A stretch of 39,559 nt of DNA, taken from positions 1 through 39,559 of the IMG/VR virus record IMGVR_UViG_3300038379_000636. The stretch is one strand, 5' to 3'. The translations under genes and the position numbers were made by a program. How positions within the stretch are numbered: the first letter of the stretch is position 1; every line of letters starts with the position of its first letter. The notes beneath the pieces were generated by a model. That model was not told the origin of the DNA, did no database searches, and was given only the letters and a program-made list of their open reading frames with translations. Positions 8,489 through 39,559 of the stretch are shown here, in pieces. This stretch comes from a virus.

Positions 8489-8886
8489 TCTCGAATCACG
8501 ACCTCCCCCGCGACCGGCGCGGGCGTGGTTTCGGTCGGCGGCGCGAGAAGCACCTGCTCCTCGATCCCCGGCTTGGGCACATACGTCTCGGGCGCCGGCG
8601 CCGTCGCGCGGCGCATGCGGTTCGCCCAGTTGATGAGCGCGACTAGCGCCGCGTCTGCTTTGGCGCGCGCGAGCTCGCGCAGCGGCGAAGGCGCTTTGTG
8701 CGGCGGCTCGTAGGGATCGAAGTGCCCGAGCGGCTGCCACTCCGCGAGGAACTGCGCCTCGGAAAGCAGCGTCCGGCGTGTCGCGCCCGCGCGCGCAACC
8801 GTCCAGCGCCCGCCCTCGTCGCGGTAGGCGTACACGTACTCGGGCGGGAGCGGAGGAGCCTCGCGACGCTTTGCTTTGACGCGCAT
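8485..8886 (-). CDS. Small partner protein S1 (133 aa), paralogue of 11344-11592
   Basis: RREAPPLPPEYVYAYRDEGGRWTVARAG..LLSEAQFLAEWQPL aligns with RRRVMPVPPPEYVYAAPTESGQWAVSSPG..LLSARELLEQFAPL of S2. The gene is translationally coupled (ATGA) to the downstream large exported protein. Confidence 0.65.
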   Translation of the reverse strand: MRVKAKRREAPPLPPEYVYAYRDEGGRWTVARAGATRRTLLSEAQFLAEWQPLGHFDPYEPPHKAPSPLRELARAKADAALVALINWANRMRRATAPAPETYVPKPGIEEQVLLAPPTETTPAPVAGEVVIRE

Positions 8887-8890
8887 CAGC

Positions 8891-11347
8891 TCAGCTGCCT
8901 CGAATCGGGCTGAACGAGAGCCCGGTGAAGTCGATGTCGACGTTTCGCTGCGTGGTTCCCGCTTCCTTCACGATGACGACCGGAATCCAGTTTGTCGTCT
9001 CCGCGCCTTCGGGCAGGTTCGCGTCGTTCGTGATCGCGGTCGTGATCGTCCAGTCGACGCCGTTGGTCGAGTAGAAGAAGTCCGCGCGCGACCAGTCGCC
9101 GTTCAGGAAGATGCCGAGCCAGATGTAGTTCGTGTCCACCGTTGGCCCGGTGGCGGTCGCACAGTCCTGCACCCCGGCGTCCTCGCCGCAGCCGCGCCAC
9201 GCAGTCGAGGCGTCCACGTCGTAGAGCCAGTAGACTCCGTCGGTTGTGTTCAGCGGCTGGGTCGCGCCGCCGTCCGAAAAGCCCGAGAGCACCTCGTAGT
9301 CCTCGGTCCCCGCCGTCGCGAGCGCCTCGACCGCGATGCGCGCAAGGTGAAAGGCGGAGCTCTCCTCCGGATTGATCCCGGTCGTCCCCGACGCGGACAG
9401 CGCAATCGCCGCGCGACCCGTCGCCGTCGTCCCCGAATCGCACTGCAGCGCCGCGACGGGGTTTTGCGTGAGGCTCGTCGCGAGATACGTGCCGACCTGG
9501 CAAGACGCGCCCGTGCCGCTCACGAGGTTCGTCAGCTCCGCCGTCGCGCCGCCGAGGAACTCGCTCCAGGAGTCGAATAGGTTCGAGAGCCTGACCCGCT
9601 CGAGCGGCCGCCAGCGCGAGGTCGTCGCGTCGTAGGAGAACGTGATCGAATCGCCCGGCTGAAGGAACCACGCAGCGCGGTGCGGGAACGTGATGCGGTT
9701 GGCCGCGCTGGAGCTCGAGCTCTCGTGCGGCAGGATGATGAGCCGCGCGCCCGCGCCGCCGGGATCGGTCGCGTTCTCGATGCGCAGCAGCCGCCCACTC
9801 GAGCCGCCCGTGACGCCGGTGATCTGCAGGGTGACGGTGGGCGTGAGGCGGAGCGTGACCGCACGCGCCGGCTGCGTTCCGTTCCATCCCGTCGGCGCGT
9901 AGTCGTTCTGCGAGGCGCTCGGGGAGTCGCTCACCACGGCGAGCGCGAAGCTCGTGAACGCCAGGTTCCACGGCAGCACGTGCGCGCTCACGTTGTTCGG
10001 CGTGCTGGCGTCTTTCTGCCACACGACGTTCGTTCCGCCGCTCGCCGCTGCGGGGGTCGTGTCGTCGAAGTCGGCGTCGGTCGCGGCCGATCCGTTCACG
10101 CTGACGTTGTCCCCACCACCGCCGGCGCCGTCGTCCGAGTTGTCGGCGAAACCGATGGGGACGCCGACAAGCTGCGACCACTCCACCTTGCCCGTCGCCT
10201 GATTCGGGAAGCCGCCGCCGATCGTGTCGTCGAGCTCCTCGAGGGCAGGCCCGAGCGCCGTCGCGGTGAAGTTGGAGTCCGCGTCGTCGAAGGGGAGCGA
10301 ATCGTCGTCGAGCACGTCGGCGCCGCCCGCGTGATGCTCGCTCGCGTGCGACTCTTCCTCCAGATCCGCGGTGACATCCGTTCCCGCGTTCTGCGTAAGG
10401 CCGTGCGTGCCGGCGGACAGGGTGAGCGGCGCGCTGACGGTGATCTCTTCCGCGACGCCGGTGCCGACCGTGGTACGCCCCAGCAGTCGAGCGGTCGACA
10501 TCGACGTCGAAATGGTGCCGCCCGACTGCGTGATCGGAGCCGTGGCCGACAGCGCGCCGTAATCGCCCGCCTCGGGGACGTCGTCATCGGCCGTACAGCC
10601 TTCCGCGGCCCCCGCGGTATCGACGCCGGCGGCCCACTGATTCGCGCCGCAGTTGCCACCGTTGGACTCGAGGGCGTCGGCCTGCCGCACCTCGAAGATC
10701 ACGTCCTCGGCGGCGACGCAGCGCGCATCGGGCGCACCCGCCCCGGTGCAGCGAATCGGGTCCGCGTCGCCCTCATTCTCGAGGTCGGGATCCACCGCGG
10801 CGACGCCCTGCACCGAGACGTTGTCCCCGCCTCCGCCGCCCGGCGTGTAGCACTCCCAGGCCGAGTCGCCGGCGTCACGGCGGATTGACTGGCCGCCCGT
10901 GCAGCCGAGATCGTCGATGATCGCCGAGGCGTTGACCGAGCCCCCTGCGCTCGCCACCGCGACATTCGAACCACAGCTGAACTCGAGGATGCTCGTTCCG
11001 GCGCCGACGGCGACGCGCTGGACGCGCAGGCGCCGAAAGCGCGGAACGAAGATTGCCTCGCCGTCCGCGGTGAACGTGGCTTCGACCTTGCTCTCGGTAC
11101 ACGCCGCGTCGCTGCACGAGTAGACCGTGGCATCGCCGCCCGCGCCGTCGGCGAAGCCGACCGAGACGGTGCGGCCGAGCGGCCCGAGCCCGCGCACGCT
11201 CGAGAAGCCCGTCGAGTCGGTGGCGTCGAACCGATACTGCGAAGCGTTGTCATTCGCGCAGATCGTCGGGTCGACGTTGACCCACTGGGCGGCGGACGCC
11301 GCAAGCGACGCAAAGCAGAGCGCGAGCGCGAGGAATGCGCGCCTCAT
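8891..11347 (-). CDS. Large exported fibre-like protein with a jelly-roll/LamG-like C-terminus, 818 aa
   Basis: The ATG at 11347 overlaps the upstream TGA. Signal peptide MRRAFLALALCFASLAASA|AQ. An internal repeat GGGGDNVSV(Q/N)G occurs twice. The C-terminus YIWLGIFLNGDWSRADFFYSTNGVDWT looks lectin/LamG-like. Confidence 0.75.
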   Translation of the reverse strand: MRRAFLALALCFASLAASAAQWVNVDPTICANDNASQYRFDATDSTGFSSVRGLGPLGRTVSVGFADGAGGDATVYSCSDAACTESKVEATFTADGEAIFVPRFRRLRVQRVAVGAGTSILEFSCGSNVAVASAGGSVNASAIIDDLGCTGGQSIRRDAGDSAWECYTPGGGGGDNVSVQGVAAVDPDLENEGDADPIRCTGAGAPDARCVAAEDVIFEVRQADALESNGGNCGANQWAAGVDTAGAAEGCTADDDVPEAGDYGALSATAPITQSGGTISTSMSTARLLGRTTVGTGVAEEITVSAPLTLSAGTHGLTQNAGTDVTADLEEESHASEHHAGGADVLDDDSLPFDDADSNFTATALGPALEELDDTIGGGFPNQATGKVEWSQLVGVPIGFADNSDDGAGGGGDNVSVNGSAATDADFDDTTPAAASGGTNVVWQKDASTPNNVSAHVLPWNLAFTSFALAVVSDSPSASQNDYAPTGWNGTQPARAVTLRLTPTVTLQITGVTGGSSGRLLRIENATDPGGAGARLIILPHESSSSSAANRITFPHRAAWFLQPGDSITFSYDATTSRWRPLERVRLSNLFDSWSEFLGGATAELTNLVSGTGASCQVGTYLATSLTQNPVAALQCDSGTTATGRAAIALSASGTTGINPEESSAFHLARIAVEALATAGTEDYEVLSGFSDGGATQPLNTTDGVYWLYDVDASTAWRGCGEDAGVQDCATATGPTVDTNYIWLGIFLNGDWSRADFFYSTNGVDWTITTAITNDANLPEGAETTNWIPVVIVKEAGTTQRNVDIDFTGLSFSPIRGS

Positions 11348-11592
11348 AGCTGCCGGTTGCTCAGCACGTGCGCCTCGGCCGCCGCCTTTTCGTCCTCGGC
11401 ACGGGCCGCCGCCTCGAGCGCTGCGCTCGGCGCGAGCGGCGCAAACTGCTCGAGGAGCTCGCGCGCCGAGAGCAGAAAGATCGGGCTGCCCGGCGACGAG
11501 ACGGCCCACTGCCCGCTCTCCGTAGGCGCGGCGTAGACGTACTCGGGCGGCGGGACGGGCATCACGCGGCGGCGCAGTTTGATTGAATCCAT
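11344..11592 (-). CDS. Small partner protein S2 (82 aa), paralogue of 8485-8886
   Basis: Shares the PPEYVYA..G.W.V core with S1. RBS GGAGG lies upstream. ATGA coupling to the downstream exported protein. Confidence 0.65.
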   Translation of the reverse strand: MDSIKLRRRVMPVPPPEYVYAAPTESGQWAVSSPGSPIFLLSARELLEQFAPLAPSAALEAAARAEDEKAAAEAHVLSNRQL

Positions 11593-11601
11593 GAGGGCCT
11601 C

Positions 11602-13407
11602 CTAGTCGTAGAAGCTCGCGTCGTGCGTCGCGTGGATGTGCCAGTCGGTTTCGCTGGTCGTCACGGCGTCGAACCGGATGTACGTGTGCTTTTGGCCCGC
11701 GGCGATCGAGCCGAGCGTGCCATTGTTGCCCGAGAGGTTGCGCGGCGTGTTGGCCGCCGCGCCCGGGTTGTAAGTCGTGATCGTCCCGACAAAGCGCATG
11801 GGGCGCGCATGCTGCCAGCCGAATGCGGTCTGATTCGAGTCGTCGCCGGTCGCGACCAAGGTGCCCGGAAAACCCGCGGTGCCAGTCGCCAGCGTCGCGA
11901 CGCTCGTCGCGTAGTCCGCCGTCTTGTCGAACCCGACCTGGCACGCGGCGAGCGTTGCGTCGAAGTCGTCCACGCGCAGGCTCGAGGAGATGTCGCCGAA
12001 CGCGAGCCACGCATCGGTGACACGGAACTCGATCGTGGCCGCGTTCATCGCGAGCAGGTCCACGTAGATCTCGACCCCGTTCTGCGCGTCGGTCATCGCC
12101 CCGAGGTCGAACGTGTGCGTGAAGGCCACCTCGTTGCCTGCCGAGAGCGCACCGGGGAACGCTTGCGTCAGCCGGTTGGTCATGTTCGCCGCGGCGAACT
12201 TCGTCGCGTTGGCGTGGTCCGGCCCTGTGTTCGAGGTCGAGCGCACGTGGAAGTTGGGCGTGATCGAGCCGGTCGTGCCCGAGTGCCGCACCTTGATCCC
12301 GAACGTCACGTTCTTGGCGCCGAGTAGCGCCCCAAGCGCGCGCACTTTGCCGCGCCCAAGGCGCACGCCGAGGCGCATGTTCGTGATCCCGGCGGCGCCG
12401 GTGAAGGCGAGGCCCATCGGCGAGAGGGCCCCCGAGTGAAGGCCGGACGAGACGCGCGTCCAGGTCACGGTGCCCCCGGTCGGGAACACGAACCACTCGT
12501 CGCAGATGTAGGCGTCCACGCCGCTCGCGACGGTGCCCGTCGCCGTCTCGCTCGGGAAGCGCTGCGAGACGAGGAAGGATCCATTCACGAGCTCGTTCTC
12601 GCCCACGATGGCCGCAGCGATCGCGCTCGCAATCTGCGTCGGGACCGGCGTTCCGACCGCTTCGTAGGCGTGCGTGCGCGCGCCGGCGTCGAGGTTGTTC
12701 AGGACCGCGAGCAGCTGGAACTGGATCTTCTGCAGCTGCACGAGCAGGGTCGCGGAGTCCGCGAGCGCGAGCGGGTTCGTCTCGACCTGCTGCTCGGCTG
12801 TGTTGAGGCCCTTGATCTTGCCCAGCGTCAGCGGGTCGGTCGCGTCGAACTCGGCGTCCCCGATCGAGTTCGCCGGTGGAATCGCCGAGGGGCCCGAAGC
12901 GGTCGCCAAGTTGGCAAGCGCCCAGGCGCGCGTCACGGCGTCCTGTCCGGAAGTCGGGTCGGCGAGGTTCTTGATCCGGTTGCTGCGTGCGTCGAAGGCC
13001 CCCGCGCCATCGGTATCGGTTTCGCCAAGGCGCGGCGCGCGCTCGACGAGGTCGCGCGTGCGCTGATTCTGATGCACGGCGCGGTCGAGCTGCTCCTCGA
13101 GCGCCTCGGCCGGGAGCGACGTGCCTCCGACGAGGTCGACCTGCTGCTTGAGCTCGGGGTCGTGAATGATGTGCAGCGTGACGCCCGTCGCCGGCGCCGT
13201 GACCATCGTGACCGTTCCGCCCGCCGGCGCGTCCTCGCCGGCCACGCTGTAGTGCGTGCCGAGCGTCTTCGTCGTCTCGGTTCCGTCGGCGGCGCGCTCG
13301 ATGACGAGGAGCGCTGCCGCGTCGCGGAACATCCAGGGCACGGCGAAGGCGACCGTCGCGCCGTTGCCGGCATAGGACACTCGGACCTGCTCGCTCGTGA
13401 CCGCCAT
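11602..13407 (-). CDS. Tail fibre protein (podovirus type), 601 aa
   Basis: The N-terminus VRVSYAGNGATVAFAVPWMF...LLVIER..DGTET..LGTHYSV..GTVTMV.AP..GV.L.I..D..L.QQVDL, followed by FDARSNRIKNLADPTSGQDAVTRAW, matches recalled fibre/tailspike N-terminal signatures. It lies directly after the internal virion proteins, as in T7. Confidence 0.75.
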   Translation of the reverse strand: MAVTSEQVRVSYAGNGATVAFAVPWMFRDAAALLVIERAADGTETTKTLGTHYSVAGEDAPAGGTVTMVTAPATGVTLHIIHDPELKQQVDLVGGTSLPAEALEEQLDRAVHQNQRTRDLVERAPRLGETDTDGAGAFDARSNRIKNLADPTSGQDAVTRAWALANLATASGPSAIPPANSIGDAEFDATDPLTLGKIKGLNTAEQQVETNPLALADSATLLVQLQKIQFQLLAVLNNLDAGARTHAYEAVGTPVPTQIASAIAAAIVGENELVNGSFLVSQRFPSETATGTVASGVDAYICDEWFVFPTGGTVTWTRVSSGLHSGALSPMGLAFTGAAGITNMRLGVRLGRGKVRALGALLGAKNVTFGIKVRHSGTTGSITPNFHVRSTSNTGPDHANATKFAAANMTNRLTQAFPGALSAGNEVAFTHTFDLGAMTDAQNGVEIYVDLLAMNAATIEFRVTDAWLAFGDISSSLRVDDFDATLAACQVGFDKTADYATSVATLATGTAGFPGTLVATGDDSNQTAFGWQHARPMRFVGTITTYNPGAAANTPRNLSGNNGTLGSIAAGQKHTYIRFDAVTTSETDWHIHATHDASFYD

Positions 13408-16400
13408 CTATCGGCTCCTGCCGCTGCGCGAGCGCGCGGCCGTTTCGTCATCCTCTACCACACCCTCCGCCGTTTGCAGCGGCCAGTCCGCGGGCACGCC
13501 CTTGGCGAGCGCGGTCGAACGCAGCGCCGCCCAGAAGAGGTCGCCCCAGTCATCCTCATCGAGCGCCTCGTCGACCGCGCGGCCGAGGTTCGCGGCCTCC
13601 TTCCAGTAGACCCCGAGCCAGCCCGGCGCCTGCACGCGGCCGCTCGAGTAGGTGCTCCACAGATCGCGCACGCCGGGCACGAGGCCGAAGAGCGAGCCGA
13701 GCACTTCCTTGCCGAGCTTCTCGGGGATCTCGTCCTCGTCCGCAGGCTCCGGGCCGCCCGGGAACGCCGCGTAGATGAGCTGCCGCAGCCCAAAGCCGAG
13801 GATCGCCGGGAAGGTGACCGCGGTCAGCACCGCGGCGGCGGTCGCCGGGACCGAGTGGTGCCTGCGCCACGAGCCGCTGACTTGATTCAGCTGCGTGTTG
13901 AGGTAGGTCCCCATGAACGTGAAGATCTCGGCGAGCGTGCCGCCGTGGGTGAGCAGGCGCGCCTGCGAGACAAGCGAGCCAGACCCCTGCGAGAGCTTCA
14001 CCGTCGAGTCGGCCACCTCGGCCGCGTCCCGCGCCGAGCGGCCTTGATCGCGCGCGAGCCGCTCGCTCGCGAGCCAGACGGGGAGGTCGACCGCAAACAG
14101 CTGCACGCCCGCAATCGCACGCGCCCCGACGTGCTGCACGAAGGAGAGCGCGCCGGCGCGGCCCGCGACGCGGCGCTCGATCTCCTTGATCTCGCGGTCA
14201 AACGTCTCCGTCCGGGCGCGCAGCATCGCCGAGCGCGCCATCACCTCGCGGTAGGTCTTCTGCGCCCGCGCGAACGAGCCTTGCCCGAGCGCGTCGAAGA
14301 GCCCGCGCGCGAGGTAGCGCGCTGCGACCAGGTGGCGCGTTCCGGTGCCGACGGTGCGGCCCTCGACGTTCTCGACGAGCTGCTGCAGGCCGTTGGCGAG
14401 GCCCGTCGGCTGGACCGCGAGCGTGGTTGCGCGCGCGAGCAGCACGAACGAGCCCGCGCGCGCGCGCATCCCGCGCGCGAGCGCCTCGATCTCGCGCAGG
14501 CCCCCCGCGTGGCCGACGTCGCCGCTCATCGCCTGGAGCCACGGGAGCCAGAACTGCGAGACGCTAAACTCGTGGCCGAGCTGCGCGCGAATTTCTTCCT
14601 GGAGTTCGCGGCCCTGCAGCGTCTTGTAGGCGTCGAGGATCGGCTCGCGGAACGAGAGGTCGAGCGACACGTCCTCGAGGTGATCGAGCAGCATCGCGAA
14701 GGCGTCGAGCCGCAGCGCCCGGCTGCGCAGCATGGTGCGCGAGCGCGTGAAGTAGTGCGTCGGCTCGACCTTGCCGACGCCCGTGCCCTCGCGCCGGAAG
14801 ACTTCGGCGGCTTCGCGCAGCGCCGCCGCGTCCGAGCGCGTCGGGTCGTAGAGCGCCGGGAAGTAGCCGCCCGTCAGCTTCACCCCGCCCGCCTCGAACG
14901 GGACCGGCTCGAGCGGCGTCGGCGCAATGCCCGAGAGTCGGCGCTCGTGCTCGAACACCTCGGCGCGCATGCCCTCGAGCAGCGCCCACACGCGGTTGGC
15001 GAACTCGAAGTCTTCGGCGTCGAGGTGGTCGGCGAGAATGCCCGCGAGCGCGGCGCGCTGATCGGCGAGCTCCATGCCCTCGAACCAGTCGTACCCGCCC
15101 GTCAGCTTCATCAGGCTCGAGTCGTTGCCCATGTGCAGCAAGATGCCGAGGAGCGTCCGGCGCGTGAGCCACGCGGGCGCGCCGGCGCCCGCGCGCGCGA
15201 AGCGATTGCGCAGCCGCGTCTCGGGCAGGATCTCGTCGTAGCGACTGCGACCGCGCGAGGTGATGAAGCGGTCGGCGAGCGCGCGCACGGGCGTCACGTG
15301 GCTGCGCATCCGGTCGGCGTGCTGGCCTTCCGCCGCGACGAACGGGTGCACGAGCACTTGGAAGAGCATCGAGGTCGTGTCGCTGCGCACGAGCGCAGAG
15401 AGCAGCGCCTCGACGCCCGTCACCGCGGCCTGCGCACGGCGCCCAAGCGCCCAGAAGTGATCGCCGAGCTCCTCGGCGCTGCGCGTCGTGACCGCACGCG
15501 CGAACGATCCCAGCGTCGCCGGCACGGCAACCAGCCGCGGCGAGCGCGTCGCCGGCCGAAGGACTCCGCGGCGAATCTCGGCCGCCATCGTGTTCCGCAC
15601 TGTCTCGCGCTCGATCACTTCGCCCTGCACGGTCGTCTCGTACTCGCGGCGCGCGGCGTTCGCGATCGAGTCGAGGGTCTGCACGAAGCCCTGCCACTCT
15701 TCGAAGGTGAGCTCGCGGTAGTTCGTGCGCGCACCCTCGAGCATCCAGCGCGGGACCTCTTGCCAGATCGCCGAGTCGGCCTCGAGCGGGAGGTCGGGCA
15801 CCGCGAGCGCGTCGCCGGCCGCGAGTCGCTGGCGAAGCCACTCGATGAACGGGGTCCGGCGTCGCAGGATCTCGGCGCCCGACAGCACTCGCAGCGAGAC
15901 GGCCTCGAGCCGCGAGTCGATCATCTCGAGGTAGCCGTGGCCCGCGAGGCCGATCTTCTTGCGCACGGCCGGCGAGCGTTCGTAGCGCCGCGCCTTGGTG
16001 AGTCCGCTGCGCACGGACTCCTGCGCCTCATGCGCGTACTGCTCGACAAGCGTATGCAGGAGCTCGCGCCGCAGCTCGGCCGAGACGCGCGCGAAGTCGC
16101 CGGCGCGCGCCGCCCGCCACGCTTCCCGGCGAGCGGCCCGTGCCGTCTCCCGGTGAATGCGCGGGCCGCGCTCGAGCTCGGACAGTGTCTTGCCCGCGAC
16201 CATGCGGCGCGCCATGTCCTCGACCACGCGCCGCGGGGAGGGCTCTGACCCGCCCTTGGCGTGCGCGATCGCTTCCTCGTCGAGGAGGAACTGAATCCGC
16301 GCCTCGCCGGTCACGGCCTGCGCGGCCAATTCCTCAAGCACCCCCGGACCGAGCTCGCCGAGCGCCGCGAGCCGCTCGCGGGCGCGCGCCTCGGCGACGC

Positions 16401-19400
16401 GCTCGCGCGAGCCCGCCTCGACCGAGCCCGCGGCGAGGAGCGCACGCACCAGGTCCGCGCCCCGGTCGAACCCGAACTGCTCTGCGACCGTGTCGGGATG
16501 GACGCCGTCCTTCGAGGCGGTGAGCCACGAGCGCGCGCCCGTTGGAACCGCCTGGATGGCCCGGCCCGCGGGCGTGTCCGCGCCAAAGAGCTCGAGCATC
16601 GCCGCGCGTGAGAGCTTGACGCGCGGCACGTCCGCCGGCGTCTCGCGACCGAGCAGCTGCCCCGTCCGCAGGTAGGCGTCGGCCTGCCACACCGGCTCGC
16701 GCGCCATCTCGGCATCGACCTCGGCGCGGATCTCGACAAGGGCCTCGCGCTCGCGCCGCTTGCGTTCGCGCTCGAGCTTCTCGAAGAGCCCGCGCCGCTT
16801 GGCCACTTCCTGGAGCTGCGCGCGATCGAGCCGCTCGCGCGCCGATGCCTGCGAGCGCGCGATCGACGCCTCGAGCGTTCGGCGCTCGGCCTCGGTCAAC
16901 TGCTCGCGCGCGAAGACGCTCGCCGTCACGTCCTCGCGCGTCTCGGCGGCGATCGCGTCGTCGGTTGCGAGGAGCCGATCGAACACGGCGCGCACGTCCT
17001 CGGGCAGCGCGGCCTCGCCGGTGAGATCGCGCAGCGAGCGGTAGAGCGAGACGAGCCACTCGCGCATGCGCGCAAAGGCGGCGCGCAGATCCGCGCTCGG
17101 CGCGCGCCCTTCGCGCAGATAGCCGAGGAAGGCGTCCGCGAGCCACTCTTTGCCGGCCGTGTCGAGCGGCGCAAGCGGCCCGTCTGCGGGCCTCCCGGTC
17201 GCGCGCAGCGCGGCGCGCACCAGCGTCTCCGCGTCCTTCGCGACCCACTCGGGCGCGTCCGGCGACTCGGCCTCGTCGAGCAGGCGCAGCGTGTAGTAGT
17301 GGCCGAGCTCGTGCAGGCCGGTCGAGAGGTCGGCGGAGCGCGCAAAACGAATGAGCGCGTCGCGCATGTCGGCGGAGAACGTGATCGAGCCGCGTTCGGT
17401 GCCGCCACGTTCTTGGCTCCGGCGCTGGGAGAAGGTCTGCGCTCCGGATTCGCGGAATCCCTCGAAGTCCTCGCCCCTGGCGGAGAATCCAGGCGCGACC
17501 GCGTCGAGAAAGCTGACCCCAAATGCGCGGCCGAATCCTCCGAGGTTCTTCGTGAGCGCGCGGTCGATCGCCGCGCGGTCCGGGAACACGGCGATCATCG
17601 AGCCAGCGTTCGAGTCGCTGACTGCGCGCGCAATCGCGCCGATGCCGCGCTGCGGGTCGCCCGTGCGGAGCCGCCGCATCTCGTCTGGCGACATCGAGAG
17701 CCAAGCCGCCGGCACGTACCGCGTGTCGAGGAGCAGGAGCCCCGTCTCCCCGGGCACCCGCTCATTCGCCCACGCGAGCGCTTCCTCCGGGCTCCCAACC
17801 CGGCCACCGCGCTCGCGCACCGAAGCCGCCACTCGCCGCAAGCGCCGCTCGAGGATGGCGACCACGCGATCGCGCCGCTTGGGCGGGATCCGGAACTCCC
17901 GCTCCGTCTCCACGTTCGAGGCGCGCCCGCCCGGTGCCACGACCAGGCTCCCGGCGAGCTCGATCCCAGAGCCGCGCAGCACGCCGGCGAGGCGATCGGT
18001 CACCGCCTGATCCTCGACGCTGCGGCCCGTGTTGCCGCTCGGGTGATTGTGGACGACCCACACCTTCGCCGCGTTCGGCACCGCGAAGCTCGCCGCGAGC
18101 GTCTCGATCGGATGCACCAGCGAGCTATCGCGCAGCCCGCGCGAGACGCGCACCACGCGCAGCACATCGCCGGCCGCGTCCGTCGTGACCGCGAGAAACT
18201 GTTCCTGCGCGTCCTTGCGGATCGGCGCGACGAGGTGAGCGACCTCTTCGTCGGTGGTGACGCGCGTGAGCCCGGTCGCGAGCGTGCCCGTGCGCACGAG
18301 CGCGACGCGCGGCCCGCGCGGACCGCTTACCTTCGGGGCCGGTGCCGCTTCGGGCGCAGCGTCGAAGAGATCGACCTGTACCGGGGCGCGCGGTCCACCT
18401 TCAGAAACGGCCGAGCGGCCTCGTTCGTCAGCATCGGCCAGCCGATAGACCGCGCCGCCTTCGGCGACGACCTTCGCTTCGCGGCGCGGAGTGAGCGTGG
18501 CATCGGTACCTCCTTCCGGCTCCTCGACCTGAAAGTACTCGTCGGCGAAGCGCTGCGCCTCGAACGCGAGCAGAGCGCGCGCAGCCGCCTCGTCGTCGAG
18601 CTGCGTGAGGTCGACGCCTGCTTCCCCGAGCAGCGCGCCGAGCTCGCCGCGCGCACCTTCGATCTCGGCGAGCTGCGCGATCTCGGCGGCCGTCCGCGTC
18701 GGCGAGCCCGCAAGCTCGGCGCGGATCGCCTCGAGCACGGCCCCGCGGTCGGCGTAGTCCGTGCCCGGCTGCGCGGGCAGGTACTCGAGCACATCGTGCT
18801 CGCTGCGAACAAGCGTGTCGGCATCGCCGACGCTGCGCGCCGTGCGGCTGAAGAGCCCGGGAAAGCGCTTCGGCGTCACGTCCATCGCGCGCAGCTCGCC
18901 CGCGAGCACGCTGTCCGGGTGCACGCCGCCGAGTTTCTTGAGCAGGTCAAGCACGGGGTACTGCGGGAGCTTCGGGAGCTTGCCGCCTCGCAGGTCCGCG
19001 ATGGCCGCGCGCAGCTCGGCGAGCCGGCGCGCGGCGGTCACGTCCTGCACCGGAGCGTCCGCGAGATCCGGGCGAGCGAGCGCGGTACGGGGTGCCGCGC
19101 CCACAAAGCGCAGCGCCGGCTCGTCCGCGATCGCCTCTTCGACCGAGATCCCGAGGCGCGCCGCGCGCGTGAGCGTGGCCGCGCGGATCACCGCAACGAG
19201 CGTGTCGGCCGCGCGGCGGTCGTAGGGCGAGTGCTCCGCGCCGACGATCGCATCGCGCAGGCGCCGGAAGTGTCCGGCCACGGCCGGCGAAACGGGCGGC
19301 GGAGTTTCGACGCCGACCGTCGCGACCGGCGACGCCGCGGCGTCGCGGAGCAGCTGCGCCTCCTCGGTCTCGGTGAGCGTGCGCGGATCGAGCCGCGCCG

Positions 19401-21201
19401 TTGCGAGCGCGCCACCGGCGGGCCTATTTGGTCCCGGAAGGCCAGCCGGAGCGGCCCCCGGAACCTCCGTGGGCGCGCGGAGCGGCGCGATCGCGGCGAG
19501 ATACTCGCCCATCGGAATCCGCGCGTCACGTCCCGAGCGCGCCGCCTCGGTGATCTCGGCGAGCGTGCGCGGCGAGAGCCCACGAATCGCGGCCTGCCCC
19601 GGCTCGCTCTGGAAGAGCTCGACGAGCTCCGCGGGGCTCATGTGCGCGGTGTCGACGCCCGCCTCTTCGCCGATGCGCTGCGCGAGCGCGCGAAACGACG
19701 CCGGCGCGCGCTCGCGCATCGTAAGCGCCGCGGCCGCCTGCTCGACTGCGCGCAGTCGCTCGCGCTCGCGCCGGCTCGCCTCGGCATGCGCCGCAAGGCG
19801 CCGCGCGGCGGCTGCGCCGAGTCCGCCCGCGGCGCCGAACACAGCGGTCGCGGTCGCTGCGGCACGGCGCGCCTCGGCGCGCGCGAGACTCGCTTCGTCG
19901 CTCGCAGCGCCCGCGGCCCCCGCCCGGGCGACCTGCGCCGCGCCCGCACCCTCGGCGTAGGCGGCCGAGGCATCGCGCGCCGCGAAGTCGAGCGCGGTCT
20001 GCACGTCCTCGGTCAGCACCTCGGAGCCGATCGCGGCCAGGTACGCCGCGCCGAACTTCGCGAACGCCGCGAGCGCGGCTCGGTCGCCCGCGAGCGCGGC
20101 AACCCTTCGACGCACCGCGGCGAGCGGGCCGCGCAGCACGGCCGAGCCGCCGATCGTTCCGAGCAGCGCCTCGAGTCCGACGAGGTCGAGCCCGGTCTTG
20201 ATGGCGCCCGTCGCGACGGCGAAGCCGACCAGCGCGTCGCGCGGGAGCATGCGCCCGTCCTTAAGCACGGTGTCCTCGAGCATCGCGTACGTCTCGGCGG
20301 TGTTCGCCCGGAACATCTCGCGCCCGGCGCCGGCGCGCGCGCCGAGTCCGGCACCAATCGGGGCGACCTCGGCGGCGAACGCGAGCCCGGCCGGATTGCC
20401 GGTCGCGGCCGTGAAGGCAACGCCGGCCGCGAGCGGGAGCCCGCCGCCGATCGCAGCGCCCGCGGCGCCGCCCGCGCTGCTGGCCAAGAGGATCTCCCAC
20501 TGCTGCGCCACGTCGCCGGCGGCGATCGCGAGCGCGCCCGTGCGATCCTCACTATGGGCGCGAGCGAGCCGATCGTAAACCTGCGCCTCCTCGGGCGACA
20601 TCCACGGCGGCACGGTCCCGATCGGAACCTCTCGATCGGGCGGCGCGGTCTTGAGCCGTGCCCACTCGGCAGCTTCTTCGGGCGTCTCGGTCCCATAGAT
20701 GTGCCCCCAGAGCAACTCGCCCTGCCGCACAGACCGGCGCCCGAGCTCGGAGCCGATCGCGGCCTGCTCGCTCGGCGCGCGCGAGCGAGCGCGGCTGTGG
20801 AGCGCGCGGCGCAGTCGCAGCCACTCGTGGAGCTGCTTGAGCACGGCGGCGCCCGCGATCGGGTCGCGGAAGGCATCCGAGAGCGCGCGCGAATCGGCGA
20901 GCTCGCCGCGGGCGGCGCGGTCGAGCCGTGCCTTGCGCAGCATGCGGCGCGCCTGCGCGGCGTTGCGCAGCGCGACATCGCGCGGCAGCCCAAGCTGCGA
21001 CTCGAAGCTGAGCGCGAGCTCGGCCTCGCCCGGCTCGGGGATCGTCGCGGCCTCGAACTCAAGGCGTCCGCTCGCAAGGCTTGGGACGCCGACGTCGAGC
21101 GCCGGCGCGTCCGGCGCGGCCGGGCGGAAGCCTTCGGGCAGCGCTTCGGGCGCGTCCGGCGCGGCTGGGCGGAAGCCCGCCGGGATGGCACCGCTACTCA
21201 T
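13408..21201 (-). CDS. Giant internal-virion / ejected polyvalent protein, 2,597 aa, in the T7 gp16 position
   Basis: The ATG at 21201 is the first in-frame Met after the upstream gene's stop at 21194. It contains a RadC-like JAB motif, an HExxH motif and C-terminal hydrophobic helices (about 13753-13854). The long Ala/Arg/Glu-rich helical regions are typical of ejection proteins. Confidence 0.85.
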   Translation of the reverse strand: MSSGAIPAGFRPAAPDAPEALPEGFRPAAPDAPALDVGVPSLASGRLEFEAATIPEPGEAELALSFESQLGLPRDVALRNAAQARRMLRKARLDRAARGELADSRALSDAFRDPIAGAAVLKQLHEWLRLRRALHSRARSRAPSEQAAIGSELGRRSVRQGELLWGHIYGTETPEEAAEWARLKTAPPDREVPIGTVPPWMSPEEAQVYDRLARAHSEDRTGALAIAAGDVAQQWEILLASSAGGAAGAAIGGGLPLAAGVAFTAATGNPAGLAFAAEVAPIGAGLGARAGAGREMFRANTAETYAMLEDTVLKDGRMLPRDALVGFAVATGAIKTGLDLVGLEALLGTIGGSAVLRGPLAAVRRRVAALAGDRAALAAFAKFGAAYLAAIGSEVLTEDVQTALDFAARDASAAYAEGAGAAQVARAGAAGAASDEASLARAEARRAAATATAVFGAAGGLGAAAARRLAAHAEASRRERERLRAVEQAAAALTMRERAPASFRALAQRIGEEAGVDTAHMSPAELVELFQSEPGQAAIRGLSPRTLAEITEAARSGRDARIPMGEYLAAIAPLRAPTEVPGAAPAGLPGPNRPAGGALATARLDPRTLTETEEAQLLRDAAASPVATVGVETPPPVSPAVAGHFRRLRDAIVGAEHSPYDRRAADTLVAVIRAATLTRAARLGISVEEAIADEPALRFVGAAPRTALARPDLADAPVQDVTAARRLAELRAAIADLRGGKLPKLPQYPVLDLLKKLGGVHPDSVLAGELRAMDVTPKRFPGLFSRTARSVGDADTLVRSEHDVLEYLPAQPGTDYADRGAVLEAIRAELAGSPTRTAAEIAQLAEIEGARGELGALLGEAGVDLTQLDDEAAARALLAFEAQRFADEYFQVEEPEGGTDATLTPRREAKVVAEGGAVYRLADADERGRSAVSEGGPRAPVQVDLFDAAPEAAPAPKVSGPRGPRVALVRTGTLATGLTRVTTDEEVAHLVAPIRKDAQEQFLAVTTDAAGDVLRVVRVSRGLRDSSLVHPIETLAASFAVPNAAKVWVVHNHPSGNTGRSVEDQAVTDRLAGVLRGSGIELAGSLVVAPGGRASNVETEREFRIPPKRRDRVVAILERRLRRVAASVRERGGRVGSPEEALAWANERVPGETGLLLLDTRYVPAAWLSMSPDEMRRLRTGDPQRGIGAIARAVSDSNAGSMIAVFPDRAAIDRALTKNLGGFGRAFGVSFLDAVAPGFSARGEDFEGFRESGAQTFSQRRSQERGGTERGSITFSADMRDALIRFARSADLSTGLHELGHYYTLRLLDEAESPDAPEWVAKDAETLVRAALRATGRPADGPLAPLDTAGKEWLADAFLGYLREGRAPSADLRAAFARMREWLVSLYRSLRDLTGEAALPEDVRAVFDRLLATDDAIAAETREDVTASVFAREQLTEAERRTLEASIARSQASARERLDRAQLQEVAKRRGLFEKLERERKRREREALVEIRAEVDAEMAREPVWQADAYLRTGQLLGRETPADVPRVKLSRAAMLELFGADTPAGRAIQAVPTGARSWLTASKDGVHPDTVAEQFGFDRGADLVRALLAAGSVEAGSRERVAEARARERLAALGELGPGVLEELAAQAVTGEARIQFLLDEEAIAHAKGGSEPSPRRVVEDMARRMVAGKTLSELERGPRIHRETARAARREAWRAARAGDFARVSAELRRELLHTLVEQYAHEAQESVRSGLTKARRYERSPAVRKKIGLAGHGYLEMIDSRLEAVSLRVLSGAEILRRRTPFIEWLRQRLAAGDALAVPDLPLEADSAIWQEVPRWMLEGARTNYRELTFEEWQGFVQTLDSIANAARREYETTVQGEVIERETVRNTMAAEIRRGVLRPATRSPRLVAVPATLGSFARAVTTRSAEELGDHFWALGRRAQAAVTGVEALLSALVRSDTTSMLFQVLVHPFVAAEGQHADRMRSHVTPVRALADRFITSRGRSRYDEILPETRLRNRFARAGAGAPAWLTRRTLLGILLHMGNDSSLMKLTGGYDWFEGMELADQRAALAGILADHLDAEDFEFANRVWALLEGMRAEVFEHERRLSGIAPTPLEPVPFEAGGVKLTGGYFPALYDPTRSDAAALREAAEVFRREGTGVGKVEPTHYFTRSRTMLRSRALRLDAFAMLLDHLEDVSLDLSFREPILDAYKTLQGRELQEEIRAQLGHEFSVSQFWLPWLQAMSGDVGHAGGLREIEALARGMRARAGSFVLLARATTLAVQPTGLANGLQQLVENVEGRTVGTGTRHLVAARYLARGLFDALGQGSFARAQKTYREVMARSAMLRARTETFDREIKEIERRVAGRAGALSFVQHVGARAIAGVQLFAVDLPVWLASERLARDQGRSARDAAEVADSTVKLSQGSGSLVSQARLLTHGGTLAEIFTFMGTYLNTQLNQVSGSWRRHHSVPATAAAVLTAVTFPAILGFGLRQLIYAAFPGGPEPADEDEIPEKLGKEVLGSLFGLVPGVRDLWSTYSSGRVQAPGWLGVYWKEAANLGRAVDEALDEDDWGDLFWAALRSTALAKGVPADWPLQTAEGVVEDDETAARSRSGRSR
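17299..17313 (-). other. HExxH (HELGH) zincin-like motif inside the giant protein
   Basis: gtggccgagctcgtg reverse-complements to CAC GAG CTC GGC CAC. Context: SITFSADMRDALIRFARSADLSTGLHELGHYY...EWLADAFLGYLREGRAPSADL, which resembles a module I recall from large polyvalent phage/conjugative proteins. Confidence 0.6.
17932..18279 (-). other. RadC-like JAB/MPN domain inside the giant protein
   Basis: EEVAHLVAPIRKDAQEQFLAVTTDAAGDVLRVVRVSRGLRDSSLVHPIETLAASFAVPNAAKVWVVHNHPSGNTGRSVEDQAVTDRL. HNHPSG is encoded at 18034-18051, and the JAMM-type H.H...S..D spacing is kept. Confidence 0.75.
21104..21177. repeat. Coding tandem repeat with a 45-bp period: a 29-bp core present twice with one mismatch
   Basis: ggcgcgtccggcgcggc(c/t)gggcggaagcc occurs at 21104-21132 and 21149-21177. 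It encodes GFRPAAPDAP twice at the N-terminus of the giant protein. Confidence 0.8.
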
Positions 21202-22732
21202 CGCGCTCGACCAGCTGCCCGCTTGGGAGCACCCACACCCCGGCCCGCGTCGGATGCGGCCGCGTGCCCGCCGGCAGTCCCGGCGCAGCGCGGCTGCGCT
21301 GCGTGCCCGTCGGCGGCGCAAGACGACCGCGAGCGCGCGGGAAGATGCCGAGCGCCGGACCGGGCTCGATGTCGACCCCGCGCTCGCGCACGAGGTCGAG
21401 CACCACCTGATCGAGCACCGCTTCCTGCTCGACCGGGTCCGGCGAGCGCTTCTCGCGGTCGGCCCACGCGATGACCGCGAGCTCGGCGCGCTGCCAGAAC
21501 GCCGTCTCGTCCTCAAGCGACGTCTCGACGACGGGAGCGCCGAACCACGGGTCGACCTGCAGGAGCTTCAGGCGCGCGTTCGCGCGCACGCCGAAGCCCT
21601 CGGGCACCCTGGCGGTGCGCTGGCGCAGCGCTTCTTGTTTGGCGCGCCACGTGTCCAGCTCGGGCCCGAGCTTTCCGGCGTCGAGCGGCTCCTCGGCGAG
21701 CTGCGCCGGCGTGAGGCCCTCGAGCCGCGCGACCTCCGCCGTGATCGCCGCGCGGCGCGAAGGGGTCACGGCCTCGGGGTCGACGATGTAGCCCCCTCGG
21801 CCGGCGACGCCGAACCAGTAGTCCGCCTCGCCGGCCAGGTCGTCGACGCGCTCGAGCACGTCGTCCACCGAGACGCCCGGGCCGCCAGGCCGCCCAAGCT
21901 GCGCGAGCTCGCTCTGCGCCGTGCGCTTGCGGTCCGCGCGGTCGCGGTCGGCATCGGCACGAGCTCGCCGCTCCTCGGCGCGCGCCGCGCGCTCCAGCGT
22001 CTCCATGCGACGCTGCGCCTTGAGCTCGGCCTCCTCGAGCCACTTCGCCGGCATCTCGGCGAACGGACCCTCGCGCGCAGCGATGCGCTGGCGGAGCGTC
22101 GCCGGGTCGTCGATGAGCCCCTGGGCGAGCGCCGCCCCAGCCACCGTGTCTCGGTAGGTCTTGATGCGCTTGTCCCGCTCGACCGGATCCCACTGCTGCG
22201 CGTTGCGGATGACCTGCGCGGCGCGCTGGCGCACGGCGAGCGCCTGCTCGGGCGTCGCGGCGCGCGCCTCGTCGTCGGCGAGCTGCGCGAGCGTCCAGTC
22301 GTCGTTCGCGGCGGCGTCCTCGACGGCTTGTTTTCGGATCGCGCTCGCGACCTGCAGCGCGATGTCCGCCTCGTCGTCGTCGAGCAGATCCTCGTACAGA
22401 TCCCGGTACCCGCCCGGCAGATCGCCAGCCGACTCGAGCGCCTGCTCGCGAGCCGACGTCCTGGCGGCCTCGAAGGTCGCGAGCGCCTTCTCGGGATCCC
22501 GCTCGGCGAGCGCCGCGGCGGCGGCCTCGCGCAGCGCGCGACCGGCCTCGCGCGCCGCGCGCGTGGCACGCGAGCGGTGGAGGTTGTCGAGCACACGCGC
22601 CGTTGTCTCGCCCACCTGCTCGAGCGCGCCGCCGAGCGCCGCCAGCCCGCGGGCGTCGCCGAACACCTCCGGGGTGGCGCGCGCCTCGCGGGGCGCGGCC
22701 GGCGCGCCGAGGAGCGGGATGCGAGACGGCAC
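21194..22732 (-). CDS. Internal virion protein (T7 gp15 position), 512 aa
   Basis: A long helical, charged protein (AELKAQRRMETLERAARAEERRARADADRDRADRK). It sits between a small TM protein and the giant protein. The function is assigned by synteny only. Confidence 0.55.
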   Translation of the reverse strand: MPSRIPLLGAPAAPREARATPEVFGDARGLAALGGALEQVGETTARVLDNLHRSRATRAAREAGRALREAAAAALAERDPEKALATFEAARTSAREQALESAGDLPGGYRDLYEDLLDDDEADIALQVASAIRKQAVEDAAANDDWTLAQLADDEARAATPEQALAVRQRAAQVIRNAQQWDPVERDKRIKTYRDTVAGAALAQGLIDDPATLRQRIAAREGPFAEMPAKWLEEAELKAQRRMETLERAARAEERRARADADRDRADRKRTAQSELAQLGRPGGPGVSVDDVLERVDDLAGEADYWFGVAGRGGYIVDPEAVTPSRRAAITAEVARLEGLTPAQLAEEPLDAGKLGPELDTWRAKQEALRQRTARVPEGFGVRANARLKLLQVDPWFGAPVVETSLEDETAFWQRAELAVIAWADREKRSPDPVEQEAVLDQVVLDLVRERGVDIEPGPALGIFPRARGRLAPPTGTQRSRAAPGLPAGTRPHPTRAGVWVLPSGQLVERDE

Positions 22733-22733
22733 C

Positions 22734-23234
22734 CTACGGCGTCCTCGGCGGCGGCGGCGGCGGGCTCGGCGGCGGCGGCGGCGGGAGCGGCGTCCTCGTC
22801 CTCGGCGACCCCGCCGGGTAGCGCAGCGAGTAGGCCGTCGCGCCGGCGCTCGCGAGCCCCGAGAGCACGGTCCCGGCCGCGGCCAGCCGCCCCGACCGCA
22901 GCGTGCTCCGCGCCGCGCTGCGCAGCATGCGATGCTCGGACAGACCCGCGCGGCGCGCCGACAGCGCCTCGCGCTCGATCATCTCGGCGTCGTTGACCAG
23001 CGCGTCGAGCGAGGTGCCCTCGAGCGCGACGCCGCTCTTTGCCGCCGCCAGCCGACGATGCGCGAGGAGCCGAGCCCCTTGCAGGCGGACGCGACGCTCC
23101 TCGGCGTAGCCCTCTTCTTTGGCGAGCTCGGCGTTGTACCGCGCCGCCGCCGCCTCGGCACCCGCCTGTTTCGACTGCGCGGCGCCCTGGATCACGGAGC
23201 CGGCGACCATCACGAGCGGGACGAACCAACCCAC
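22734..23234 (-). CDS. Small internal virion / membrane protein (T7 gp13/14 position), 166 aa, with a Pro-rich tail
   Basis: The GTG at 23234 is preceded by a GGGGGG RBS; an alternative ATG lies at 23210. The N-terminal hydrophobic segment is VGWFVPLVMVAGSVIQGAAQ. The C-terminus is PLPPPPPPSPPPPPPRTP. Confidence 0.5.
   Translation of the reverse strand: MGWFVPLVMVAGSVIQGAAQSKQAGAEAAAARYNAELAKEEGYAEERRVRLQGARLLAHRRLAAAKSGVALEGTSLDALVNDAEMIEREALSARRAGLSEHRMLRSAARSTLRSGRLAAAGTVLSGLASAGATAYSLRYPAGSPRTRTPLPPPPPPSPPPPPPRTP
22737..22790. repeat. GGC-rich coding microsatellite-like tract
   Basis: ggcggcggcggcggcgggctcggcggcggcggcggcggg... reads as poly-Pro on the minus strand. Confidence 0.7.
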
Positions 23235-23265
23235 ACGACCCCCCGAAATATCTCCACGGTTGTTT

Positions 23266-23274
23266 ATTATCACA
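23266..23274 (-). promoter_or_regulatory. Candidate extended -10 promoter element (TGTGATAAT)
   Basis: This is the only AT-rich patch in the 191-bp non-coding gap 23235-23425. Its minus-strand reading is TGtGATAAT, 31 nt upstream of the GTG at 23234. I found no convincing -35. Confidence 0.3.
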
Positions 23275-23425
23275 GCCGCCGAGCACGGCACGCGCGAACT
23301 CTGCACGCCGCCGAGCAGTAGACGGCGCTCTCGGCGCGGGTCATCGCGCGCGTCACGCGCGAGCACGTCGAGGCCGCGCTCGCCGCAATCCCGTCCAGCG
23401 CGACGTACGCGCTCGCCGAGGCGCT

Positions 23426-25681: not shown

Positions 25682-25942
25682 CTACACCACCCCAAGGAGC
25701 GCCAGCCGACGGCGGAGCACGTGCTGCTCGAGGATCCAGCAGGCCGAGGCATCGTCCACATTGACGCACTGCACGGTCGCCGTGCCCTCGCGGTCGATGG
25801 CGATGGCGATGAGTCCGCTGGTCTCTTGTCGTTCGACGCCGGCGACGAGCTCGCCAAGAACCTGGGCGAGCTCGCGGCGCACGCGCGGCGACTCCGCGAG
25901 GGAACGCACCAGTCGAACCGATTTCGCGCCCGCCGCGCTCAC
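25682..25942 (-). CDS. Hypothetical protein, 86 aa
   Basis: The GTG at 25942 overlaps the upstream TGA (GTGA). G/C is high at the third codon position. No motif recognised. Confidence 0.45.
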   Translation of the reverse strand: MSAAGAKSVRLVRSLAESPRVRRELAQVLGELVAGVERQETSGLIAIAIDREGTATVQCVNVDDASACWILEQHVLRRRLALLGVV

Positions 25943-39539: not shown

Positions 39540-39559
39540 CGCGCGAGCAGCTTCGGCGG
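39433..39559. repeat. Exact 127-bp terminal direct repeat, copy 2
   Basis: Identical to 1-127. Confidence 0.9.

Follow-up and report, generated by a model that had tools for sequence, protein, structure and literature searches.

A putative polyvalent ejection protein with a RadC-type domain as exchangeable cargo in a 39-kb phage genome

Results

The 2,597-residue protein and its features

In this study, we analyzed the largest gene of a phage sequence, IMG/VR record IMGVR_UViG_3300038379_000636 (39,559 nt), of which positions 1-39,559 were used; this whole stretch is called the window below. The gene lies at 13408-21201 on the minus strand and encodes 2,597 amino acids (aa) and a stop codon from an ATG at 21201. 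A preliminary description made from the DNA letters had placed a gene of this length, about 20% of the genome, in the slot of T7 gp16, and this was confirmed by the open reading frame (ORF), the G+C content at third codon positions (GC3, 0.894 for this frame), a share of 19.8% of the ~39,432-bp genome and synteny. The protein was scanned with Pfam (E ≤ 1), NCBIfam (E ≤ 0.1) and PHROGs (E ≤ 0.01), and 50,697 phage records were searched with tblastn. These similarities lie far outside what chance would give, with E=1.9e-17 for RadC in Pfam, E=1.7e-168 for phrog_9880 and E=0 for the closest homologue. The features of the protein are listed below, with the closest relative named P0001 and AlphaFold2 abbreviated as AF2.

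13408-21201, minus strand: whole gene, putative 2,597-aa polyvalent internal virion (ejection-slot) protein (ORF, translation, GC3, homologues P0001 and BPP-1 Bbp10)
17440-18525, minus strand: exchangeable cargo cassette, aa 893-1254 (no alignment with P0001, in contrast to both flanks)
17917-18252, minus strand: RadC-type JAB/MPN+ domain, aa 984-1095 (Pfam PF04002)
18010-18051, minus strand: JAMM motif H1051-x-H1053-x7-S1061-xx-D1064 (read from the sequence)
17482-17820, minus strand: accessory subdomain specific to the cassette, C-terminal to the JAB domain, aa ~1128-1240, ~110 residues (conserved in five RadC cassettes)
16942-17418, minus strand: zincin-like (gluzincin-type) domain, aa ~1262-1420 (invariant HExxH+E, AF2 model, Spartan SprT profile match)
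20722-21039, minus strand: divergent LPD22-equivalent N-terminal region, aa ~55-160 (positional alignment with LPD22 of homologues)
20011-20493, minus strand: Gly/Ala-rich hydrophobic zone, aa 237-397, candidate membrane-interacting region (Kyte-Doolittle windows 1.2-1.5)
18526-20010, minus strand: rest of the conserved N-module, aa 398-892 (similarity to P0001 and other homologues)
13459-16941, minus strand: all-α C-module, aa 1421-2581, the family-defining chassis (phrog_9880, AF2)
14842-14871, minus strand: invariant GGYxPxxYDP, aa 2111-2120 (family alignment)
13762-13857, minus strand: hydrophobic segment at aa 2449-2480, the strongest one, with an acidic patch after it (Kyte-Doolittle 1.81)
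21103-21183, minus strand: N-terminal proline-rich tandem repeat PxGFRPAAPDAP, two copies, aa 7-33 (read from the translation, PAGFRPAAPDAPEA / PEGFRPAAPDAP)

A RadC-type JAB domain with a complete JAMM motif

The RadC family (PF04002) was the sole Pfam family found in the whole protein, with 63.7 bits against a cut-off of 22.1 (E=1.9e-17). The same region matched phrog_10276 (E=1.3e-13) and, in a search of PDB sequences, 2qlc (E=4e-4), while the NCBIfam RadC models NF000642 and TIGR00608 matched the JAB part only. Since the NF000642 match was partial (model positions 94-206 of 212) and reached 54.6 bits against an equivalog cut-off of 180, the region was taken as a RadC-type JAB domain and not as a RadC orthologue. 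The RadC/JAB assignment of the preliminary description was thus supported by the profile searches, and the coordinates that it gave for HNHPSG (aa 1051-1056, 18034-18051) and for the HELGH motif treated below were exact. The upstream catalytic Glu, E1000 (18202-18204), aligns with the Glu of 2qlc, so that the JAMM residues E1000, H1051, H1053, S1061 and D1064 are complete; they are also invariant in all five cassette copies, which are only 26-46% identical to each other.

With stand-alone bacterial RadC (PF04002; PDB 2qlc) the domain shares the JAB fold signature and the complete JAMM motif, and cellular RadC proteins of 150-250 aa are its nearest database relatives. It differs from canonical RadC in having no N-terminal part and in being followed by the accessory subdomain of ~110 residues, found only in polyvalent cassettes. 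A profile of the five cassettes recovered only stand-alone cellular RadC proteins (87 matches, 150-460 aa), which were covered in the JAB part only, and the subdomain therefore appears specific to the polyvalent cassette. A word-indexed homologue search with the cassette alone gave nothing at E ≤ 1e-5. A second, degenerate JAB domain after RadC, in the manner of an MPN+/MPN- pair, was considered and rejected (hhalign of the two sub-alignments, probability 0.4%); the 'MIAVFPD' stretch aligns with the 'VVFD..I' junction motif of other family members.

Exchange of the cassette among relatives

The closest relative, P0001, is a 2,638-aa protein encoded on a 40-kb contig with the same gene order (L003:10001-17917). 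It aligns with the present protein at aa 71-892 and 1193-2574, and not between. At the position of the RadC cassette, P0001 has a different cassette of ~370 residues (its aa 909-1279) with no Pfam match, which may be an undescribed cargo domain.

By tblastn, aa ~1211-2527 were matched at 24-28% identity with E values down to 3e-67 in BPP-1 Bbp10, in the Caulobacter Rauchvirus phages, in Pseudomonas phage AF and in Cobetia, Vibrio, Xanthomonas, Nostoc and Microcystis phages; Bbp10 and the Jess A homologue sit in the same slot. The distance from the N-module to the zincin-like domain varies by more than 2,000 residues among the homologues, and the interval holds PBECR1 in BPP-1 Bbp10 and ART-PolyVal in Jess A. 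LPD22 (PF18834) was present in 23 of the 29 homologue matches, many of which also had ART-PolyVal (PF18760) and other domains. From their Pfam accessions, we take the cargo of other homologues to be Zeta toxin, C5 (cytosine) DNA methylase, SLT, ParB, DdrB-ParB and SNF2-type helicase. A scan of genome contigs and viral contigs with the whole protein found no close relatives.

The RadC cassette itself (~273 residues, JAMM intact) recurs in P0030, P0033, P0053 and P0068, that is in 4 of the 177 other relatives retrieved. For three of the four (P0030, P0033 and P0068) the phage-slot location was checked and was the same. The P0033 gene comes after portal, Bbp19-like, capsid and nozzle genes; the P0030 gene (L005:5778-21449, 5,223 aa) has tail-tube genes on one side and a 602-aa fibre on the other; the P0068 gene follows T7_gp14 and precedes an mtd/bAvd/reverse-transcriptase retroelement (L006:9987-13620), as in BPP-1. 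Going by the sequences retrieved, RadC is a rare but recurrent cargo of phage ejection-slot proteins. The GC3 of the cassette is 0.84 against 0.88-0.92 in its flanks, which lends slight support to a separate history of the cassette.

Two side observations concern the cargo interval. The P0030 protein, from a related metagenomic phage contig, is twice the size of the one described here, and one ejection protein can thus carry far more cargo. Upstream of the zincin-like domain, many members share a junction motif ('VVFD..x..I', '..F/Y-x-Q', 'RGxI'), which reads 'MIAVFPDRAAIDRA ... TFSQRR ... RGSITF' in this protein (17440-17560, minus strand, aa ~1214-1254) and may mark either where the cargo bay ends or a site of processing.

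The zincin-like domain

HELGH (aa 1297-1301, 17299-17313) is the sole HExxH in the protein, and E1352 (17146-17148) stands at the head of EWLADAFLGYLREGRAPS (aa 1352-1369, 17095-17148). H1297, E1298, H1301 and E1352 are invariant in an alignment of 32 sequences whose overall identity is ~25%, and the domain is the most conserved stretch of the whole family. The sequence context of HELGH had been read in the preliminary description as a sign of polyvalent proteins, and it holds as such: the 'EWLADAF..YLREGRAPS' stretch contains the invariant E1352 and is a family hallmark.

An AF2 model of aa 1258-1470, built on an alignment of 27 sequences, had a pLDDT of 84.9 and a pTM of 0.72 and showed a β-β-α-α-α core. 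Two strands (model residues 14-18 and 25-29) are followed by the HELGH helix (35-54), a second helix and the E1352 helix (91-107, with E1352 as model residue 95), and the pLDDT of the HELGH and E1352 helices is ~89-96. This predicted order fits a small gluzincin. Iyer et al. 2017 (PMC5512222) described three strands, against two in this model; the missing strand, or an N-terminal helix, may precede the modelled segment. In a profile search against PDB, the region matched the Spartan SprT protease domain at its active-site helix (6mdw, E=0.005), and individual members gave sub-threshold matches only, to the DUF4344 'putative metallopeptidase' (E=0.035) and to SprT-like (E=0.047). From these alignments and the model, we regard the domain as zincin-like, an assignment that is well supported though not completely so.

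The conserved N- and C-modules

The remaining ~2,000 residues had been thought in the preliminary description to hide possible further effector domains. In the alignments they appear instead as a conserved chassis and not as a string of hidden effectors, because the N- and C-modules are common to relatives with entirely different cargo and only aa 893-1254 are variable.

The N-module (aa 1-892) is 43% identical to P0001 aa 60-908 and is weakly conserved in many homologues. LPD22 (PF18834) of BPP-1 Bbp10, Jess A and P0002-P0027 aligns positionally with aa ~55-160; this relationship is positional only, as no LPD family was found in this protein by Pfam at E ≤ 1, and the conserved 'DD' of LPD22 in the family appears replaced here. 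In the Gly/Ala-rich zone (aa 237-397), G287 is nearly invariant in the family, and the zone is the positional analogue of TMH I of T7 gp16 (PMC8954989). The proline-rich repeat at the N-terminus was not seen at the N-termini of the aligned homologues.

The C-module, together with the zincin-like domain, is matched by phrog_9880 (aa 1260-2581, E=1.7e-168). Its AF2 model (aa 1398-2597) is almost wholly α-helical with a pLDDT of 73.6. An exhaustive HMMER search with aa 1255-2454 found 7,571 representative clusters (50% identity) at E ≤ 1e-3 and 2,902 at E ≤ 1e-30. Against BFVD, the C-module gave 63 matches at E ≤ 1e-3, all of them C-terminal pieces of very large phage proteins, and the named ones were 'Large polyvalent protein associated domain-containing', 'ART-PolyVal-like' and 'PolyVal ADP-ribosyltransferase'.

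The C-terminal hydrophobic helices of the preliminary description were found again, and the segment aa 2449-2480 is the strongest of the whole protein; the membrane insertion and packaging suggested with them are kept here as predictions. The position of this segment is conserved in the family consensus, and a weaker segment lies at aa 2351-2380 (14062-14151). The hydrophobic zones at aa 237-397 and at aa 2351-2380 and 2449-2480 bracket the cargo, the zincin-like domain and most of the C-module, and we infer that they could insert into a membrane.

The conservation of GGYxPxxYDP (aa 2111-2120) looks like that of a functional site. Near it, to ~aa 2160 and beyond, R2155 is invariant, D2119 and H2174 are nearly invariant, and the sole short β-strands of the C-module model are found. 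A non-significant hhalign alignment, which cannot be trusted, pairs the motif with N4 gp50 residues 2918-2965.

The ejection-protein slot

The structural genes of the window are all on the minus strand in a T7-like order, namely large terminase, portal, protease/scaffold, tail tube A, tail tube B, gp14-like gene, gene of the 512-aa protein, the 2,597-aa gene and fibre. The genes of this block from the portal onwards are as follows.

30413-32050, minus strand: portal (phrog_332)
29114-30025, minus strand: protease/scaffold-like protein
25942-26520, minus strand: tail tubular protein A (phrog_394, E=6.7e-55)
23429-25681, minus strand: tail tubular protein B (phrog_376, E=2.6e-159)
22737-23534, minus strand: gp14-like internal virion protein (phrog_418 'internal virion protein', E=3.3e-10)
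21194-22732, minus strand: 512-aa protein in the gp15 (IVP-C) slot (synteny; its stop overlaps the start of the big gene)
11602-13407, minus strand: tail fibre with a T7-type N-terminal adaptor, directly downstream of the big gene (Pfam Phage_T7_tail, E=1e-8; phrog_1640, E=6e-28)

The gp14-like protein also matched Pfam T7_gp14, below the cut-off (E=0.006). The 512-aa protein had no family match in PHROGs, Pfam and NCBIfam except a weak one to phrog_14627, and its counterparts in the gp15 slot at the P0001, P0030, P0033 and P0068 loci are 530, 504, 493 and 570 aa long. The same gene order was found at six related loci (P0001, P0033, P0030, P0068, BPP-1 and Caulobacter phage Jess A). The 2,597-aa gene occupies the T7 gp16 slot, as the last and largest internal-protein gene between tail tube B and the fibre.

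Discussion

Proposed delivery of the cargo

The product of the gene is, in our view, probably the large internal virion (ejection) protein of a podophage related to BPP-1; in this protein a conserved chassis surrounds one exchangeable cargo bay, here occupied by RadC. The chassis would consist of the N-module (aa 1-892, with the LPD22-like head and the Gly/Ala-rich zone), the zincin-like domain (aa ~1262-1420) and a helical C-module of ~1,150 residues with a hydrophobic segment near its end. By analogy with T7 gp16, the capsid core would hold a few copies, which would pass out through the tail before the DNA does, accompanied by the gp14-like and 512-aa proteins. The hydrophobic zones may associate with the inner membrane, a role suggested for the two transmembrane regions of T7 gp16, and the portion between them, including RadC and the zincin-like domain, would then reach the cytoplasm. 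There the zincin-like domain could cut the polypeptide in cis or in trans and free the cargo, and at the very start of infection the RadC domain may act on a target in the host, with a nucleic acid or a protein conjugate as substrate.

Several published findings bear on these steps. Hardies et al. 2016 (PMC4819975, Table 2) listed BPP-1 Bbp10 as a homologue of T7 internal virion protein (IVP) D (gp16), a link which needed chained family profiles, and noted that IVPs host 'domains destined for the cytoplasm'. In T7 gp16, a hub in the cytoplasm is flanked by two transmembrane regions (PMC8954989). The polyvalent proteins were defined by Iyer et al. 2017 (PMC5512222), who favoured nucleic-acid or nucleotide processing as the role of RadC; since they also proposed metallopeptidase (MPTase)-mediated processing, the zincin-like domain is the best candidate for processing and cargo release. 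For Stx phage phi24B, gp47, a polyvalent protein of 2,811 aa, was detected in virions by proteomics and proposed as an ejection protein (bioRxiv 10.64898/2026.04.10.717836, 2026).

Comparison with known systems

The nearest systems are the Bbp10-like proteins of the Rauchvirus-type podophages (phrog_9880; Caulobacter Jess A, SR18, RapA and BL94, Pseudomonas AF, and Cobetia, Vibrio and Xanthomonas phages). They are encoded in the same slot as here, after tail tube B, a gp14-like gene and the gene of a 500-750-aa protein and before the fibre or Mtd, and they have the same zincin and all-α C-module (24-28% identity over ~1,250 residues) and an equivalent N-module with the LPD22 position. The cargo differs, being PBECR1 in Bbp10 and ART-PolyVal in Jess A against RadC here; in addition, the present protein is ~550 residues longer and its LPD22-like head no longer matches Pfam. 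Unlike BPP-1 with its mtd retroelement, this window showed no diversity-generating retroelement, as judged by the ORFs scanned, none of which matched a reverse-transcriptase family, and by the absence of repeats resembling template and variable repeats.

Membership in the polyvalent-protein class is supported at the level of sequence by the very large size, the RadC and zincin-like domains, the location among virion genes and the homologues with LPD22, ART-PolyVal and PBECR1, and the cargo list of further homologues (Zeta toxin, methylase, SLT, ParB and helicase) agrees with this class, which had been named in the preliminary description. With the phage-type polyvalent proteins of PMC5512222 the protein shares its very large multidomain build, a place among late virion genes with predicted packaging and injection, and a zincin-type metallopeptidase beside exchangeable conflict-type enzyme domains. 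It differs in that RadC is found here in a phage ejection-slot protein and in that its zincin clade lies outside the Pfam MPTase-PolyVal model.

Compared with the T7 gp16/IVP-D proteins (T7 gp16, epsilon15 gp17, the C-terminal domain of N4 gp50 and H66 gp60), the gene is likewise the last and largest in a run of three internal-protein genes that follows tail tube B, and the protein is almost wholly α-helical, with two hydrophobic zones that bracket a large central part in the manner of TMH I and TMH II (PMC8954989). N4 gp50 and H66 gp60 also carry a domain that must act in the cytoplasm (PMC4819975). The present protein is about twice as large as T7 gp16 (1,318 aa) and has no N-terminal lytic transglycosylase, a domain that is T7-specific and not universal; T7 gp16, epsilon15 gp17 and N4 gp50 gave no detectable sequence or fold match to it in the profile, Foldseek and hhalign comparisons made here. 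Like phi24B gp47 (LPD5, LPD1, LPD38 and an MuF-C metallopeptidase), it would be a giant podovirus polyvalent protein with a metallopeptidase. The two have other LPD sets and peptidase types, and no Stx phage was seen by organism name among the tblastn matches, so that gp47 is taken as an analogue in another podovirus lineage and not as a demonstrated homologue.

Evidence against and alternative explanations

Several results weigh against an ejection protein with a releasable RadC cargo. No virion proteomics of a Bbp10-family member was found in the literature searched, and the presence of the protein in virions is a prediction. Homology of the C-module to T7 gp16-type proteins was not reproduced: a profile of the zincin-like domain and C-module gave zero matches to PDB sequences at E ≤ 10, and hhalign of this profile against single-sequence templates gave probabilities of 0.9% for epsilon15 gp17 and 0.4% for N4 gp50. 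Foldseek of the C-module model against PDB gave nothing significant (cyanophage A4 pre-ejectosome, E=6). The assignment to IVP-D is accordingly drawn from synteny, helicity, hydrophobic zones and the literature, with the homology claim coming from Hardies et al. 2016 only. T7 gp16 requires a positively charged C-terminus; the ..ARSRSGRSR C-terminus is positive here, and this is not a family-wide trait, as only 40% of members have a net charge of at least +2. As to the zincin-like domain, neither this protein nor any of the 27 aligned domains matched Pfam MPTase-PolyVal or another peptidase model above threshold, and Foldseek of the model, which is dominated by long helices, found no solved zincin in PDB at E ≤ 0.001. 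The zincin claim of the preliminary description is retained in part, for the invariant HExxH+E, the AF2 topology and the weak Spartan, SprT and DUF4344 similarities, and it did not extend to a known family or fold. For RadC, a 2025 review (PMC11981726) notes no known biochemical activity and only metalloprotease-like structural neighbours.

The absence of a lytic transglycosylase, already remarked in the preliminary description, makes room for a different role of the zincin-like domain, namely that of a cell-wall or periplasmic peptidase which helps the ejectosome to cross peptidoglycan in place of the missing enzyme, and not that of an autoprocessing protease. Pfam, NCBIfam and PHROGs showed no lytic transglycosylase, lysozyme or peptidoglycan peptidase in the 2,597-aa protein, and by Pfam and NCBIfam no peptidoglycan hydrolase domain was present in it, in its 512-aa neighbour or in the gp14-like protein. 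Such a role was proposed by the phi24B authors for the metallopeptidase of gp47 (bioRxiv 10.64898/2026.04.10.717836), and it would suit the most conserved stretch of the family. We nevertheless hold it unlikely, because the domain lies between the two hydrophobic zones alongside cargo whose place of action must be the cytoplasm (methylases, ARTs, RadC), because its profile similarity is only to Spartan/SprT-type proteases and not to M23 or M15 cell-wall peptidases, and because the family member P0009 carries an SLT domain of its own as cargo. A purely structural ejection protein, with RadC and HExxH as inactive relics or structural metal sites and no effector role, would agree with the want of a demonstrated RadC activity (PMC11981726), with a zincin cleavage that is a prediction, and with an LPD22-like head diverged beyond the Pfam model. 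It is very improbable in view of five JAMM residues that stay intact and invariant across cassettes of 26-46% identity, of an HExxH+E invariant across 32 sequences of ~25% identity, and of the cargo turnover at one site, which argues for selection on function.

GenBank labels such as 'lysis protein' and 'lysin containing a beta/gamma crystallin motif' stand on the homologues Jess A gp039c, BL94, RapA, OANV1 gp16 and those of Nostoc and Microcystis phages, and would make the product a late-expressed lysis protein outside the virion. We give this next to no credence: Pfam, PHROGs and NCBIfam found no lysozyme, amidase, holin or crystallin domain, the gene belongs to the tail/internal-protein block and not to a lysis cassette, the P0068 locus has a separate Phage_lysozyme gene, and Hardies et al. 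(PMC4819975) place Bbp10 in IVP-D. A more specific proposal is that the virion-delivered RadC/JAB domain is a counter-defence enzyme at DNA entry, either a deconjugating isopeptidase that would remove ubiquitin-like or other protein conjugates produced by host immunity, or a processor of a nucleic-acid or nucleotide defence signal, with the zincin-like domain as release protease. We rate it as quite unlikely; if true, it would give the long-enigmatic RadC its first assayable function, from a single cargo bay in a 39-kb phage.

The general reading of an ejection protein with cargo is already in the literature, in which ejection proteins appear as enzyme carriers (Hardies 2016) and polyvalent proteins are defined (Iyer 2017), and the point that departs from it is RadC as a recurrent though rare cargo of phage ejection-slot proteins. 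What this locus adds is a clean architecture, in which the N-module and the zincin/C-module frame one cargo bay and the closest relative differs exactly there, and a RadC domain in a phage-type polyvalent protein, with catalytic residues that are intact and an accessory subdomain that is the same in every case. It also adds a chassis family of more than 7,500 clusters, with HExxH+E invariant in 32 aligned sequences; none of the metallopeptidase models now in Pfam covers it, and no structural relative of it has been solved. Searches for the substrate of RadC would find a convenient system in a small phage that ejects a protein with RadC as its sole cargo.

Other features of the genome

Two further genes lie upstream of the portal gene on the same strand.

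34176-35747, minus strand: large terminase
33217-34170, minus strand: N6/N4 DNA methyltransferase (Pfam N6_N4_Mtase, E=1e-43), the next gene after the large terminase

A mechanical ORF of 637 aa (33214-35127) is the methylase gene over-extended across the terminase gene. Downstream of the fibre adaptor gene there are three large ORFs on the minus strand (2701-4707, 5441-8740 and 8891-12496) with no PHROG or Pfam family, which are probably distal fibre or tailspike proteins. The one of 668 aa had a weak pectate-lyase-like match (E=0.005), and the 1,201-aa ORF has a start that runs into the fibre gene and was probably over-called.

The window has an exact direct repeat of 127 nt at both ends (1-127 and 39433-39559). 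The length of 127 is a common maximum k-mer of assemblies, and the repeat represents either the overlap of a circular assembly or a direct terminal repeat of short length; from the identical ends, the window was taken as a complete genome of ~39,432 bp. No tRNA genes were found in the window.

The mechanical ORF of the big gene reaches further upstream, to a TTG at 21516. The ATG at 21201 was preferred because the stop codon of the 512-aa gene before it overlaps it (ATGAGTAG) and because P0001, where the two genes overlap in the same way, also opens with 'MS' at this place in the alignment. The G+C content of the window is ~72%, and long ORFs occur on both strands. Two ORFs on the plus strand, 12436-16248 and 17299-21474 (1,270 and 1,391 aa), overlap the big gene in antisense and were regarded as shadow ORFs, since their G+C content is highest at codon position 1.

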